Part shown: one piece after another, positions 21,075-33,200 of the stretch
Layout: each line of letters opens with the position of its first letter
Position numbering within the stretch: the stretch's first letter is position 1
Source of the DNA: a virus
Direction: 5' to 3' (one strand)
DNA: 64,000 nt
Virus record (IMG/VR): IMGVR_UViG_3300028844_003474
Span: 1 to 64,000 of that record
Program-made: the position numbers and the translations under genes
Notes under the pieces: model-generated
Databases searched by the model: none
What the model was told of the DNA's origin: nothing
Seen by the model: the letters and a program-made list of their open reading frames with translations, nothing else

Positions 21075-21488
21075 ATGTGCAAAAAAGATAAAGAAGAAAA
21101 GCCAGAAGACTTTATTTGCAAAATAACATGCGGTAACGAAGGCACTGCGTGTCTACTTACCTTCACAACTCATTTTACATTACATAGTTTCTTTCAAGCT
21201 ATCGCAGCTAGCTATCCAGATGTAAATTCTGACAATCCAGTATTGTTACGCTTCTCTGAAGACTATGATGGGTTTCGTATGACCCTTACTTGTACGGGCT
21301 ATGCAGACAGTACGTTTTCTTTTAACATATCTGATTCTAACGTTGATTCTTTTTGTCAGTATGTTATTGGTGACCCTATTAACTATACTGTCAAAGATGT
21401 CTTCATTGGATGTATTCGCAATGAGATGACTAAGGTTACAGGTCGTTATGTTTCACACCTAAAAGAAGAATACCATGTCTTCCAGTAA
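21075..21488 (+). CDS. Hypothetical protein
   Basis: ORF track. Confidence 0.6.
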   Translation: MCKKDKEEKPEDFICKITCGNEGTACLLTFTTHFTLHSFFQAIAASYPDVNSDNPVLLRFSEDYDGFRMTLTCTGYADSTFSFNISDSNVDSFCQYVIGDPINYTVKDVFIGCIRNEMTKVTGRYVSHLKEEYHVFQ

Positions 21489-22032
21489 TATGACAGAAAG
21501 GAACATCATCATATTTGATTTAGATGGTACTCTTGCTAATGTGAGTGTAAGACGTAGTCTTGCTGACTCTGCTAAAGCTAAAGTATTAGGTGAGGTTACT
21601 CATCCTTATGCTGATAAGGAGTTAGTGCAACAGGCTAATGAGGCTTGGTGGCATGAGTGGGAGGGAGTATCCGCCAATATCCAGTATGATAGACCTTCAC
21701 CGGTTGCTGATATACTGCGTGGCTTCCATATGTTGAATAGATTTCACATTGTTATATTTTCTGGCCGTAATAATCGGCTTCATAATGTAACTTTGCGTTG
21801 GTTAGACAAGCATAGAATTCATTTTGATGATTTCTTTATTCGTCCTGCTAACGACATGCGACCTGACGAGGTGTTAAAGAATGAGATGCTTATGTCTAAA
21901 CCTGAGGGGTGGCGTCGTAGAGTAAGAGTTATTTTTGACGATCGTAATAAAGTCGTCAAAGAATGGAAAAAGCTTGCATTGCTTCCTGAACACAGCTTTT
22001 CTCTAGTTCAAGTTGCTGATGGTGACTTTTAA
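21475..22032 (+). CDS. HAD-family phosphatase (T4 PNK 3'-phosphatase domain-like)
   Basis: FDLDGTLA, FSGR, RPD..LK, FDDR, QVAxGDF. Confidence 0.88.
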   Translation: MSSSNMTERNIIIFDLDGTLANVSVRRSLADSAKAKVLGEVTHPYADKELVQQANEAWWHEWEGVSANIQYDRPSPVADILRGFHMLNRFHIVIFSGRNNRLHNVTLRWLDKHRIHFDDFFIRPANDMRPDEVLKNEMLMSKPEGWRRRVRVIFDDRNKVVKEWKKLALLPEHSFSLVQVADGDF

Positions 22033-22040
22033 AAAAAAAT

Positions 22041-22225
22041 CCTGCTGCGGCAGGTATGGGACGTGGTTGAGAACTGTGACCGCAGTCGGTTTAGTACCGC
22101 CACTCCCATTAAACAGGTGATAAACACAGCCTTAAATGTGTTTGATTTTGGTTGACCATGACAAGATGGTCGTCAGTAGATTGTTAGGGGTAGGGGATCA
22201 AAACGTTGGTTCCCTACTGCTACCA
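22041..22225 (+). ncRNA. Cluster of stem-loops upstream of the tRNAs (candidate structured RNA)
   Basis: CCTGC/GCAGG; TGGGAcGTGG/CCACTCCCA enclosing ACTGT/GCAGT and CGGT/ACCG; AAACACA/TGTGTTT; GACCAT/ATGGTC; GTAGGGGATCAA/TTGGTTCCCTAC. Confidence 0.45.
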
Positions 22226-22244
22226 ACAAAGAGTACATAATTTT

Positions 22245-22329
22245 GCCACTGTGATGAAATTGGTAGACATGACAGACTTAAAATCTGTTGGACAGTTTGT
22301 CCGTACCGGTTCGAATCCGGTCAGTGGTA
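22245..22329 (+). tRNA. trnL: tRNA-Leu(TAA)
   Basis: GCCACTG/CAGTGGT acceptor, ACAGA-CTTAAAA-TCTGT anticodon arm, long variable arm, GGTTCGAATCC. Confidence 0.95.
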
Positions 22330-22363
22330 CTAAAACATTTAGCACACCTAACGTGCTTTTTAT

Positions 22364-22437
22364 ACTCCTGTAGCACAACCGGATAGTGCAACATCCTTCT
22401 AAGATGTAGGTTGTGGGTTCGAATCCCGCCAGGAGTA
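22364..22437 (+). tRNA. trnR: tRNA-Arg(TCT)
   Basis: ACTCCTG/CAGGAGT acceptor, ACATC-CTTCTAA-GATGT, GGTTCGAATCC. Confidence 0.95.
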
Positions 22438-22453
22438 CTTTTATTTTAATATT

Positions 22454-22585
22454 ATGTCAAAGATTGTATCCGTAGCTAAAGAAACTGTCTCTACTAAGAG
22501 ACCAGGTATTCACAGCAAAACCAAAACCTCTAATCACAAGAGCAGTAAATGCTATCGTAAAAAGTATAGAGGTCAAGGTAAATAA
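22454..22585 (+). CDS. 43-aa basic protein ending KKYRGQGK (not in ORF track)
   Basis: Hand translation MSKIVSVAKETVSTKRPGIHSKTKTSNHKSSKCYRKKYRGQGK; motif recurrent in aquatic phages. Confidence 0.75.
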   Translation: MSKIVSVAKETVSTKRPGIHSKTKTSNHKSSKCYRKKYRGQGK

Positions 22586-22586
22586 A

Positions 22587-22994
22587 ATCCCTATACCGTC
22601 TGATTAGAGTCAGACACTTAGGGCTGGTCAGTTAAAGACCTTAAAACCCATGAGAGGCTATGGTTCCTCTCGGTTTGTCGGTGGTGTTAGCCGAAGTAAT
22701 CTCCACCTAATGGTACATGAACGTACAAGTGGCCTCTGTCTCATACTCTCTAAAGTTGGCAGAGGCTGCGGATCTCATTGGGGTCTGACTGAGCCTTATT
22801 ACCCAAATCAGTTACTATCTAAAAGTCCTACGCTAAACAATCGTAGGCATTATTTATCAGTCAAGCAATAGTGTACGTGTTACCGCTTGATGTATAGACC
22901 ACGTACCTGTCCCAACTTGGACAGCTTAGTCATAGTTAGAGAGAGTGTAGCTGTTATGCCAGCCTACGGGTCGCAGTGCACTCTCTTGTTTTTT
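22587..22994 (+). ncRNA. Candidate large structured ncRNA (about 400 nt)
   Basis: About ten helices, one H-type pseudoknot and a terminal terminator-like hairpin with U-tract; no convincing ORF. Confidence 0.6.
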
Positions 22995-23005
22995 CACAAA
23001 TAAAT

Positions 23006-23446
23006 ATGGATAGAGAAACAGAAATTACCGACAAGCTATTGCAGCTTATGAGAGTACAACAGATTAACCACAACCTTGAGAATGAGTGTATTAAGCTGCG
23101 TCATGAGGTCGGAAATTTGGAAGAGCGTGACAATGGTCGTCTTATCGAAGATTTGCGCAAAGAAAACTCTGATCTTAGAGGTGAACTCTATAAGCTCAAG
23201 GGGCGGGTGCAGCTCATGGATAATATTGTGTATCTCTACGAGGCTGAGAGGTACTTTGATTTCAAAAAGCCACGACTGTCAAAAGTTTGTCGTGAGCTTA
23301 ATATGGATATGCAGGATGCAGTTGATGTTCTAGCACAAACAGGCCTCATTGAATGGTCTCGACGTGAGACATTCTGTAAACCAAACACAAAGCTGGATAT
23401 GATGCAGTACTGTGTGTTGAGGTTTATAGATCACAAAAACAAGTAG
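23006..23446 (+). CDS. Coiled-coil protein with C-terminal IF2 N-terminal-domain-like module
   Basis: RLSKVCRELNMDMQDAVDVLAQTG...KPNTKL. Confidence 0.6.
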   Translation: MDRETEITDKLLQLMRVQQINHNLENECIKLRHEVGNLEERDNGRLIEDLRKENSDLRGELYKLKGRVQLMDNIVYLYEAERYFDFKKPRLSKVCRELNMDMQDAVDVLAQTGLIEWSRRETFCKPNTKLDMMQYCVLRFIDHKNK

Positions 23447-23448
23447 AC

Positions 23449-23856
23449 ATGGACATTAGCAAGACAAAGTTCATCAAGAACTTCGTGTTTAAAAAGATTA
23501 GCAAAGAAGGGTCTTACGGTGACAACCAAAGATATATCACTTATCAAGCTTGGCTTCACTTACCAAACAACTACAGGCTTTCGATAATAACCAGCCCTGT
23601 TGGTACAGGACTTACTTCAGTTCCTAACACGTATGAAATTGGGTTCTTTTCTAATCATCATCATAATGGGATGATTAAAGCACACAAGGAAGTGTATTGT
23701 TTTAACATCAAAGGTGTAGAAAAAGAGGTTGTTGCGTATCATACGACTGCTGAATATCTCACTCTTGAAGATCTTGAAGAATACCTTGTAGAAATCAGTG
23801 AGTGGCCTACTCGCACCAAAGAGATGGATATCGAAGAAGGTTATATTGACTCTTAA
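23449..23856 (+). CDS. Hypothetical protein (NNYxLSII...YEIG phage family)
   Basis: ORF track. Confidence 0.65.
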   Translation: MDISKTKFIKNFVFKKISKEGSYGDNQRYITYQAWLHLPNNYRLSIITSPVGTGLTSVPNTYEIGFFSNHHHNGMIKAHKEVYCFNIKGVEKEVVAYHTTAEYLTLEDLEEYLVEISEWPTRTKEMDIEEGYIDS

Positions 23857-23878
23857 AATAAATAACCCCTTCGTTTTA

Positions 23879-23955
23879 GCGCTTGTAGCTCAGTTGGTCA
23901 GAGCATCCGACTCATAATCGGCAGGTCGTAGGTTCAAGCCCTACCAGGCGCACCA
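23879..23955 (+). tRNA. tRNA with CAT anticodon, probably Ile2 (lysidine) rather than Met
   Basis: GCGCTTG/CAGGCGC acceptor plus ACCA; CCGA-CTCATAA-TCGG anticodon arm resembles bacterial Ile2; lacks initiator GGG/CCC and 1-72 mismatch. Confidence 0.9.
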
Positions 23956-24067
23956 TAAGGTTGAAACGTCAATCTTGCAGAGCAAACAAAACTGAGTATA
24001 GGTTTGGAATAATCTTCATGATTAGTTTTTTTGGTTTAGGAGTTTTCCAGTTCTCCTAGCTCTGCTT

Positions 24068-24093
24068 AAATGAACCCTACGCTACGTTGTAGC
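24068..24093 (+). promoter_or_regulatory. Phage motif copy 4
   Basis: AAATGAACCC-TAC-GCTAC-GTTG-TAGC. Confidence 0.7.
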
Positions 24094-24122
24094 AAATATA
24101 TATAATACACAAACACAAAATA

Positions 24123-30260: not shown

Positions 30261-33200
30261 ATGAAAAGTATTTTATCATCAATAGCGTTAGTACTTACAG
30301 CGCTTTCAATAACAGCACAACCGCCTACGCCTGATTTTTCTTGCGGTCCAAGCACTTGGGATGGCCTAGGTAATAACCCTACGCCGGATGCGCAGGCTTT
30401 TATCTGCTATACTACCTCAGCTCCAATAGGTAAATATATTTATTGGAACCCGTTTGTTCATAATCCTGACATGACTGAACTTGCAATGCCTGCTGAGGAC
30501 TTTGCAGACTGGAATTGGGATAATATTTACGGCATGAAAGGTCGTTATGGAATTAATTTTCCTAGCTATTTAGGAGATGGAGATACATTATCTGCTCAAG
30601 TTTTTGAAACAAAACTGAATCCAACTAGTGAACCAGATGGAGATCTTCAAACTTTTACAGATCACCAATTTGATTTTTATGGAGGAAACTACAAGTTCAA
30701 TATTTTACACCTTGAGCAAGGTACTATTGTAAAAGTGCATCCGGGAGCAAGCATTGAGATTCATACTGCGTTAAGCATTGAGTACGGAGCTGTTCTAGAA
30801 ATTATGCCTGGTGCAACTGTATTGCTTAAAGCTACTAGAGACAATATAGCTGTGACTGACGTTCAAGGTGCGATTGAAGGTACTCTACAAAAAGAAGTTT
30901 ACTTTGATGTAAGTGACACTTGGCAAAGTCTTTCTCAATTTAATAAAGAACTTAGGTTTGTATTTAATCCGGGTATGTATAACGTAGACTTACATAAAGT
31001 TGCTTTAGACATACAGGCAGCTGCCACAGTACCATTGGCTTTTGGAAATTCAGAGCCAAGTGTTCAAATTGGTTATTGGGGAAAACGACCCACTTTCATA
31101 GAAACTCAATCTATGTATGACTTTGCTGCAATCCACACATATGAGTCTCCTTCTAGTTCTTTTGAACTTGTTGGAGACTCTAATCTTTTTGTAGGAGAAG
31201 CTGTTTTAAACACAGATGGATTTGTAATTAGCGAAAACGTCGGTCAAGAGTTTGCTTTAAGAACAAACAGCATGGCAGGTCATTTTTATAATTACAACGA
31301 GGGAGTTAGTATTCTCCCGATCTATCCTCCTACAGAAGACATTGGAACATCAGATGAAGCATTGCTAAACCACTGGTTTAACAGCGATGACTTTACAGGA
31401 TTTGCAGATGAGACTATTAACACAACCTCTGATATATCTAGTTTTTCAAAGACTCCAATAGAGTTAGATAGAACTTTTGCAGTGTCTTTAATGGGAGTAA
31501 CTAACAGTTTAGAAGACTTTAAAATTGTAGTTGAAGGTAAGTTTGACAGCAATAAATTTATTTCTGTCCAAAACTCTACTATAAGCCCGACCTTATTTGG
31601 AGTTGAACTCCCTTACCCTGGAGCTACTGCTACTTATATTGGATACCCAGATGCATATCCTGAACAAAGTGTTTTCTTTGAGTCTACTGCTATTGCAGAC
31701 CCTCCAAACAGTCTTTTATTTGGAGTGGATTTGTATTCTAGAACAGGAGCTGATGATTACTCTTTGTACAGAGGAGTAGATTTTAGCGGCTTGTCTGTTT
31801 TAAATAACAGAACAGGAAATTATTTAGATACATATGAAACCTTATTTACACTGCTTGCAACAGCTTTAGACGCTCAGTTAGCTTTGTTTGACATAGCTCC
31901 TCTTATAGGAAGACAAGATAGTCGAGACTTTAAGATTGACGCAGACACAGATAAGATGTATGAGTCTACAAGTGGAGAAGCTTTTCCTATTCCTGTTTCT
32001 AATTTACTTATTTGGGACGACACCGCTCCTCAATACCCAGGCGTAGAAATCACAGACTTTTATAACATAGAAGACATGAAAATCTTCTATGCAATCGGAG
32101 ATACGATTAGACCTGACGAAATGTTAGCCTATAATTACAATAATCCTTGTGATCCACAAACTATTGAAGGTGTAGGATATGACAATTATTCTACGTTTAA
32201 AGAAATAGGACTTAACTGGCTTAATAAAGGAGGCGTTTCAACTAGTGGAGCTCCTGTAGGCTCTCCTCCTGGAAGTGACACTGTTTATGCAACACGTACT
32301 AATGCTCCTGTATACAGAAAGACAGAGCAAGCTTATGTAAATAACAAACCTGTTTTAGGTTCTATGAAAGAAGCTAGAGTTCCTGTAGGACCTGGTAATG
32401 TTGGAAGTACCGAGATTTACGATTGGACTATTGAAGAATTAAACGACATGAACGAGTTTACTCTTTTGCGATTAGCAGGAGTAACTTTGTTAGGCGATAC
32501 GCTTACCATTGCAATTGTTCCTTTAGCTACAGATGAAGACTACAGTGCTACAGACATTGATTTGTTTGAGTCATCGGTTGCTGTAAATCCAATCATGTAT
32601 TTGTTACCTCCAACAGATGTGCATGTAATGAGTCGAAAGTGGGGGTCTTACGGAAGAGGAATTAATGATTTCAATGACTCTCTTCAACTTGTCATAGACT
32701 TTGAGGCTTTAGACTTTGTAACAAATGGAGCTAACAGTTTTTCAAAGCTATTTATTGATGCTCCTGTCAAACAAGTTGGAGCTTGTGGTCTTTCCGGAGA
32801 CAATCTTGTAGTAGCTACATCTACTGGTAATTTATATACCTGGGCTCCAGATTTTGAGTATGAAATTGATATGAATAGCACGTACAATATGCCAAATGAA
32901 AGTGGCAGTAGTGGAGACTACGGTAGCGGAGCTGTAGTTGACTTGTATTTTACTACTACTCAAGCAGACTTTAACGGAGACGGCTGCGTCACAACTGCTG
33001 ATCTTCTTATATTACTTGGTCATTTTGGTACCAATGTTACTCCTGGTAATTTTCAAAGTGTTGCAGCTGATTTAAACTGTGATGGTGTTATTAGTACATC
33101 TGACCTTCTTATCTACTTAGGCTTTTTTGGACAATGCGCTTCTGATAGTGAAATTCCTTCTGAAGAAGCTGGAACTGTCTTACAAAAAAGAGCAGCGTGG

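Follow-up and report, generated by a model that had tools for sequence, protein, structure and literature searches.

The stretch at positions 22587–22994 of the window, the 64,000-nt length of phage DNA analysed here, very probably encodes a genuine structured RNA that is conserved and belongs to a new family. We consider it likely that this is a conserved structured non-coding RNA of a marine crAss-like phage lineage, belonging to a new family and acting in its own right. Its action as a stand-alone (trans) RNA is a more tentative proposal, for which our confidence stays slightly below even. The fold was compared with that of a homologue in a second marine phage (L091), and all but one of the initially listed helices were maintained there, with compensatory changes.

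Genomic Setting of the Candidate RNA

The window comes from a 74-kb IMG/VR virus record, of which it makes up the first 64 kb. Its family-A DNA polymerase was closest to crAss-like phages, with ~26% identity. The runs holding the stretch were marine metagenomes from 10 studies and their copies were near-identical, so the RNA seems to be widespread in marine samples. The neighbouring genes are all on the plus strand (Table 1), and 10 of the 96 pairs of the RNA are G-U on this strand, which was counted among the reasons for choosing it.

The initial annotation had located the RNA in a tRNA cluster. This was correct for the window, which has three tRNA genes, but it did not hold for the second member. 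The sister phages L003 and L002 have three tRNA genes and one, respectively, and G003, the whole record behind L091, has none. Because the complete genome of the homologue is free of tRNA genes, the tRNA neighbourhood is probably incidental and not a family trait.

The 43-aa basic peptide encoded upstream of the RNA (…PGIH..KTSN.KSSK.Y.KKYRGQGK) is a member of a phage family that is widespread and whose tail, SKLYKKKYRGQG, is nearly invariant. The family was seen at 80 viral loci in several unrelated groups, with a tRNA directly upstream in four other loci, and the peptide had no Pfam or PHROG family match. Its gene was rejected as a marker of the RNA: another ORF follows directly in most of 73 loci, and no downstream stretch resembles that of the window.

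Inside the 210-nt non-coding stretch, a hairpin with the loop UUUAGU (22095–22105) has counterparts in the non-coding tracts of both L002 and L091. This GGTTTAGTACC-type hairpin has only four pairs and was dropped as weak. A diverged relative found in run X12 lacks 22032–22112.

Table 1. Features of the candidate RNA and its surroundings, in window positions. S1 and S2 are the two stems of a pseudoknot; L091 marks the letters or state in the homologue.
Feature	Position	Strand	Remarks
Polynucleotide-kinase-type phosphatase gene	21475..22032	+	Pfam HAD_PNKP 8.7e-20; PHROG polynucleotide kinase
Non-coding stretch, 210 nt, 5′ of tRNA-Leu	22033-22244	+	
tRNA-Leu(UAA), then tRNA-Arg(UCU)	between non-coding 22033-22244 and 43-aa ORF	+	ARAGORN
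43-aa basic peptide ORF (context, outside the RNA)	22454..22585	+	stop 3 nt 5′ of P1
Candidate RNA, 408 nt	22587..22994	+	5′ domain 22587-22772; 3′ domain 22776-22994
P1 CCCUA/UAGGG enclosing P1a GUCUGA/UCAGAC	22589..22623	+	P1 22589-93/22619-23; loop UUAGAG 22604-22609 invariant
P2 hairpin GGUC/GACC	22626..22640	+	L091 AGUC/GACU, G-C to A-U on both sides
73-aa ORF inside the RNA, judged not a gene	22650..22871	+	broken in L091
P3 hairpin GAGAGG/CCUCUC	22652..22671	+	L091 AAGAGG/CCUCUU, compensatory
P4 hairpin GGUGG/CCACC, inner stem UUA/UAA	22680..22707	+	
P5 hairpin GUAC/GUAC (self-complementary)	22713..22726	+	invariant in both, no covariation for or against
P6, 12-bp stem GTGGCCTCTGTC/GGCAGAGGCTGC with G-U pairs	22729..22769	+	loop holds invariant ACUCUCUAAAG
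PK1, H-type pseudoknot, found in this analysis	22779..22813	+	loops 3, 1, 9 nt
PK1 S1 UGGGG/CCUUA	22779-83/22794-98	+	L091 CGGGG/CCUUG, U-A to C-G on both sides
PK1 S2 GACUGA/UCAGUU	22787-92/22808-13	+	L091 GACUG/CAGUC, G-U to G-C
P9 hairpin CCUACG/CGUAGG	22827..22847	+	L091: different hairpin CGCC-UUCG-GGUG between conserved flanks, length differs
PK2, H-type pseudoknot, S1 UCAAGC/GCUUGA, S2 GUACGUG/CACGUAC	22861..22906	+	
P12 hairpin CUGUCC/GGACAG	22907..22924	+	L091 ACGUCA/UGACGU, same place
P13 terminal hairpin AGAGAGTGTA/TGCACTCTCT, then TTGTTTTTT	22939..22994	+	three tiers
P13 outer and middle stems	outer 22940-49/22977-86; middle 22951-54/22973-76	+	RNAalifold
P13 apical stem	22962-22972, 22963-22970, 22964-22969	+	22971 bulged; UACG loop
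ORF146	23006-23446	+	directly 3′ of candidate RNA
ORF135, then tRNA-Met	downstream of ORF146	+	

The Homologue in L091 and the Search for Further Members

The DNA polymerase, 72% identical in protein, led to two sister phages, L002 and L003. These share the downstream genes o156, o222, and o160 with the window, and the candidate RNA is absent there. Alignment of the neighbour protein o156, only 49% identical, led to L091, in which the homologue of the candidate RNA occupies L091:3412–3962. This marine phage genome is complete, is 85 kb long, and carries terminal repeats. blastn aligned the RNA of the window and that of L091 in a 178-nt block (79% identity) and a 211-nt block (64%), with a ~165-nt insertion between them in L091. 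The 5′ domain of the RNA showed 82% nucleotide identity to L091, compared with 59–67% in five shared protein genes nearby, and the candidate RNA is therefore the best conserved DNA of the neighbourhood.

The L091 RNA lies directly behind an AAA_33 kinase ORF (L091:2734–3426) and overlaps its stop codon. On the 3′ side it is followed by a further 726 nt of non-coding DNA and then by an ORF unrelated to ORF146. Two things recur in both phages: the genomic slot, which lies 5′ of the o107/o77/o156 block, and the presence of an end-healing-type enzyme 5′ of the RNA.

The covariance model R1 (core 22646–22772) matched the window and L091 only (85 sources, four whole phage records). A blastn search with the stretch and its L091 homologue against 50,697 GenBank phage records returned only 29-nt chance matches in Vibrio phages. 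An exact 22-mer scan of viral contigs gave no match; the common variant T22739C would break that word. The PNKP phosphatase and ORF146 proteins likewise found nothing in viral contigs. Among metagenome contigs, ORF146 found a single one, which begins 54 nt before the gene and does not cover the RNA. Two conserved DNA patterns returned the L091 contig alone from viral contigs; the match of one pattern in genome contigs was a patatin-like coding gene and was discarded as chance. Known membership stands at two diverged members (window and L091) together with the near-identical marine variants.

Two observations on these relatives are recorded here. The relative in run X12, ~12% diverged, aligns on both sides of 22854–22935 (PK2 and P12) and not across it; ~88 nt are unalignable, with the joint from 22853 to 22936, which fits the rapid re-lettering of the PK2/P12 segment in L091. 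In L091 itself, the 726 nt at L091:3967–4692 hold no ORF and fold with z = −3.7, forming with the RNA a 1.26-kb non-coding tract.

Structure of the 5′ Domain

Six hairpins in a row (P1/P1a and P2–P6) form the 5′ domain, whose linkers and loops are almost invariant. MFE folds of the window and L091 5′ domains, made separately, gave the same hairpin series. RNAalifold on the untouched MAFFT alignment showed 49 pairs, which were 100% paired, with six changed on both sides. In the control, where the 3′ partners were slid by 1–3 columns, the values fell to 36–42% paired with 0–1 pairs changed on both sides. Shuffles of the 5′ domain reached the observed values in 2 of 500 cases.

P1 was wholly re-lettered in L091 (CUCUCA/UGAGAG), where a helix of different length occupies the same place, and the enclosed P1a (GACUGA/UCAGUC) showed one compensatory pair. 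P4 is a longer helix in L091 (GGUGAUG/CAUCACC) with a compensatory G-C to A-U change. Ten pairs of P6 were kept, one of them changing from G-C to G-U. The population variant T22739C, present in three runs, turned a G-U pair of P6 into G-C.

Structure of the 3′ Domain

Two H-type pseudoknots (PK1 and PK2), the hairpins P9 and P12, and the three-tier terminal hairpin P13 make up the 3′ domain. The long-range helix TGACTGA/TCAGTCA (22786–92/22855–61) of the initial annotation is present in the window but cannot form in L091. The local GACUGA/UCAGUU, part of PK1, is conserved in its place. Support for PK1 is moderate, since beyond the changes given in Table 1 the remainder is invariant.

The pseudoknot TCAAGC/GCTTGA crossed with GTACGTG/CACGTAC (PK2), also proposed initially, was recovered in L091 with the same topology and different letters. 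With the L091 helices of the re-lettered parts (PK2, P12, P9, and P1) picked by eye, GACAUG/CAUGUC was crossed with GCAAUCG/CGAUUGC in the same order, and 9 of the 13 pairs were changed on both sides with none broken. The 73-nt segment of PK2 and P12, lying between two conserved anchors, is unalignable with L091 in sequence and the same in topology. In dinucleotide-preserving shuffles with Watson–Crick pairs only, an H-type knot whose two stems each had at least six pairs appeared in 1.0–1.5%, and a knot with a following hairpin, as in the PK2–P12 arrangement, in none of 20,000. When G-U pairs were allowed, the knot alone appeared in ~20%. As knots are common once G-U is allowed, the Watson–Crick-only figure is the relevant one.

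P13 showed 18 pairs in the RNAalifold comparison with L091, with two compensatory, three one-sided compatible, and no broken pairs. In the window, P13 (22939–22987) followed by the U-tract UUGUUUUUU has the form of an intrinsic terminator; it was missed by a simple terminator scan, as its loop is longer than 8 nt. L091 keeps the P13 hairpin and lacks the U-tract. Since the hairpin is conserved and the U-tract is in the window only, P13 is primarily an element of the fold and only secondarily a terminator.

Support for the Fold and Folding Energy

The helices drawn in the initial annotation (P1/P1a, P2, P3, P4, P6, P9, P12, PK2, and the terminal hairpin) were all found in place in the window, and 12 of the 13 were kept in L091 with compensatory changes. 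Covariation was read from two diverged sequences, the window and L091, whose position-matched helices showed 54 unchanged pairs, three one-sided compatible pairs, 18 compensatory pairs, and no broken pair.

The MFE of the 408-nt stretch was −127.7 kcal/mol, with z = −3.3 against shuffles (−2.75 in a re-run); the L091 RNA gave z = −4.9. For 24 other 408-nt segments of the same strand, mostly coding, the mean z was −1.75 (sd 1.36, minimum −4.1). The minus strand folds equally well (−128.7 kcal/mol vs −127.7 kcal/mol). Folding energy was dropped as a marker of the region, since its z lies within the range of the other segments. The case rests on comparison and not on energy, because the z value is not exceptional for this genome.

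Several coding segments of the plus strand within 18400–52000 showed z below −3.8, for example, at 31000, 43600, and 49200. Energy z-scores alone mislead in this genome, as its coding segments fold better than shuffles on average.

Comparison with Known RNA Families

Rfam 15 was searched by cmscan with permissive filters (E ≤ 10) over positions 21900–24100 of the window and 2400–4800 of L091. Three tRNAs only were found at the gathering score, and no family matched the candidate RNA at E ≤ 10. GOLLD, ROOL, HEARO, OLE, and raiA had no match at E ≤ 10 in the window or L091, where only tRNAs and chance matches appeared. The reported absence of tmRNA and RNase P was borne out: ARAGORN detected three tRNAs and no tmRNA, no Rfam tmRNA family matched, there was no tRNA-like end pairing, and no RNase P family matched at E ≤ 10. 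Models of self-cleaving ribozymes (HDV-like/theta, hammerhead, twister, and others) had no match inside 22587–22994 at E ≤ 10. As read from the sequence, PK2 is a plain H-type knot without the P3 and P4 hairpins of a nested double pseudoknot. Nor does the RNA have the character of a riboswitch or attenuator: the downstream genes differ, L091 is without the terminator, and no riboswitch family matched.

A 2023 catalogue lists 8,495 unnamed candidate structured RNAs from IMG/VR (PMC10690425), and the present RNA may be among them; we found no description of it in the literature searched. The initial proposal of a new or diverged large phage RNA is supported, and "new" fits better than "diverged GOLLD or ROOL", as no Rfam family matched. 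Judged by its sequence against Rfam 15 and the literature, the candidate would best be placed as a new family within the loose kind of large structured phage RNAs.

GOLLD is a large phage or prophage RNA of >800 nt, often found near tRNA islands. The candidate is similarly phage-encoded and large, with many helices and pseudoknots and with one well and one less conserved half, and in the window it lies among tRNA genes, as GOLLD often does (bioRxiv 10.1101/2024.12.08.627333). However, the Rfam model of GOLLD did not match it at E ≤ 10, it is half the size, its conserved half is the 5′ half compared with the 3′ half in GOLLD, and its second member is in a genome without tRNA genes. ROOL, a phage or prophage RNA that forms an octameric cage, frequently has tRNA genes as neighbours (bioRxiv 10.1101/2024.12.08.627333). 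GOLLD and ROOL both form RNA-only cages (bioRxiv 10.1101/2024.12.08.627333). The candidate shares with ROOL its phage origin, a comparable size (~400–550 nt here), multiple pseudoknots, and no known protein partner. Its loops could also kiss, with UUAGAG facing CUCUAA/UCUAA and with the self-complementary GUAC. It differs in having no match to the Rfam model and in its unrelated sequence and secondary structure.

With tmRNA the candidate has in common a length of ~400 nt and a string of H-type pseudoknots, but it is without the tRNA-like end pairing, the T-arm, and the tag reading frame. The tRNA cluster of phage T4 contains species 1 and 2, stable non-tRNA structured RNAs of unknown function, which are ~120–140 nt long, share a transcript with the tRNAs, and are processed like tRNAs. 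Compared with these, the window RNA is three times larger, is pseudoknotted, and also occurs in a tRNA-less phage.

Expression and Proposed Action

RNA-library contigs on the stretch were of low depth in three runs, similar to the neighbouring genes, and may derive from DNA; these runs were selected with this stretch, and the contigs show neither strand nor ends. The RNA would be part of the plus-strand early/middle transcript, 3′ of the tRNAs and the 43-aa ORF, and P13 with its U-tract would also end the transcript in the window phage. We propose that the RNA acts in its own right and not as a control element of one neighbouring gene. Both the upstream and the downstream genes differ between the phages, and this speaks against a control element dedicated to any single gene.

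The invariant single-stranded motifs are UUAGAG, CUCUAAAG, UCUAAAAGUC, GGUUUGUC, and CCUAAUGG. These may form a contact surface for a protein partner or for RNA–RNA contacts, either inside one molecule or from copy to copy. CUCUAA, in the loop of P6, and UCUAA (22818–22822) are both complementary to UUAGAG of the P1a loop. As in ROOL/GOLLD, such loop complementarities could link parts of a single RNA or bring separate copies together. Loop–loop contacts of this kind show no covariation because both partners are invariant.

Alternative Explanations

The RNA could be a cis-acting leader or attenuator for ORF146, in which P13 and the U-tract terminate transcription unless the 5′ strand of P13 pairs with the P6 loop. 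The U-tract after P13 ends 12 nt before the ATG of ORF146, and in both phages the P6 loop (ACUCUCU) repeats the letters of the P13 3′ strand, so that an alternative pairing with AGAGAGU is possible. In L091, however, P13 has no U-tract, there is no ORF146 homologue, and the next ORF is 726 nt away. Both switch partner sequences are invariant and nothing covaries in support of the switch, and ~350 nt of conserved pseudoknotted structure far exceeds what an attenuator needs. We regard this explanation as unlikely, and we judge in much the same way a 3′-UTR or processing module that protects the mRNA and tRNA precursor on its 5′ side from 3′ exonucleases or directs cleavage. Such a module would suit the position of the RNA, which starts 3 nt past the stop codon of the 43-aa ORF and overlaps that of the kinase in L091, leaving no room for its own promoter directly upstream. 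End-healing enzymes on the 5′ side in both phages (HAD_PNKP phosphatase; AAA_33 kinase) and the candidate HDV-like ribozyme further downstream in the L091 non-coding tract point in the same direction. The upstream genes are nevertheless unrelated between the two phages, and simple stabilisers consist of one hairpin, whereas this RNA spans 400–550 nt and has two pseudoknots and invariant loops. Within the window RNA, none of the self-cleaving ribozyme families matched.

It is very improbable that the stretch is an unrelated run of hairpins or a small protein gene (73-aa ORF, 22650–22871) without RNA-level function. The folding z within the range of coding segments of the same genome and the open 73-codon frame in the window speak for it. 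The initial annotation had held that a conserved coding signature of this ORF would speak against the RNA, and the opposite was found. In L091 the ATG is replaced by ATA, a 2-nt deletion shifts the frame, and a stop follows after 33 codons. The differences fell on codon positions 1, 2, and 3 in 3, 6, and 4 cases (hand count), which is no third-position bias, and a Pfam search of the ORF gave no match. Nucleotide conservation is above that of real genes nearby, and at least 18 compensatory pairs with none broken also stand against this explanation.

Sister-Phage RNA and Neighbouring Elements

In the sister phages, the corresponding genomic slot contains a different conserved structured RNA (L003:4918–5080 and L002:3703–3856). 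It showed 26 predicted pairs, six of them compensatory, and had no Rfam family, with only a weak manA match (E = 0.21). The whole non-coding tracts at the slot cover L003:4921–5154 and L002:3570–4392, and the L002 tract (823 nt) gave z = −4.4. Like the window RNA, this element lies beside tRNAs and 5′ of the o107/o77/o156 block, and the L003 copy is directly behind the same 43-aa ORF. It was rejected as a diverged copy of the window RNA: there was no sequence similarity, and the core covariance model had no match in L002, L003, or their whole records.

A candidate HDV-like self-cleaving ribozyme is predicted at L091:4492–4568, in the non-coding tract 3′ of the homologous RNA. It matched drz-agam-1 weakly (24.8 bits with a cut-off of 37, E = 0.006 in a local search), and P1–P4 could all be drawn. 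HDV-like "theta" ribozymes have been described in gut phages (PMC10879173).

The two halves of polynucleotide kinase/phosphatase are split between the phages, with the HAD_PNKP phosphatase in the window and the AAA_33 kinase in L091, each 5′ of the RNA. The RNA ligase family PF09414 had no match in any of the four phages, and a link to RNA ligase was dropped for this reason.

Implications

Large structured RNAs of unknown function are rare, and their study has paid off, as with the GOLLD and ROOL cages. The present RNA can be transcribed, probed, and imaged without a cultured host, and it is testable now because its secondary-structure model is supported helix by helix.

There is a small chance that a new class of large "ornate" phage RNA, having its own activity, has been sighted here for the first time. 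One possibility would be an RNA-only assembly, by analogy with ROOL/GOLLD, through the invariant complementary loops (UUAGAG with CUCUAA/UCUAA, and GUAC). The other possibility is that the RNA ends would be made or healed by the adjacent polynucleotide-kinase-type enzymes in both phages.

The presence of a different RNA at the same slot in the sister phages suggests a site of large-RNA swapping, comparable to the exchange of accessory protein genes. If the end-healing possibility is true, the slot upstream of o107–o156 would be a cassette site that exchanges unrelated large RNAs.
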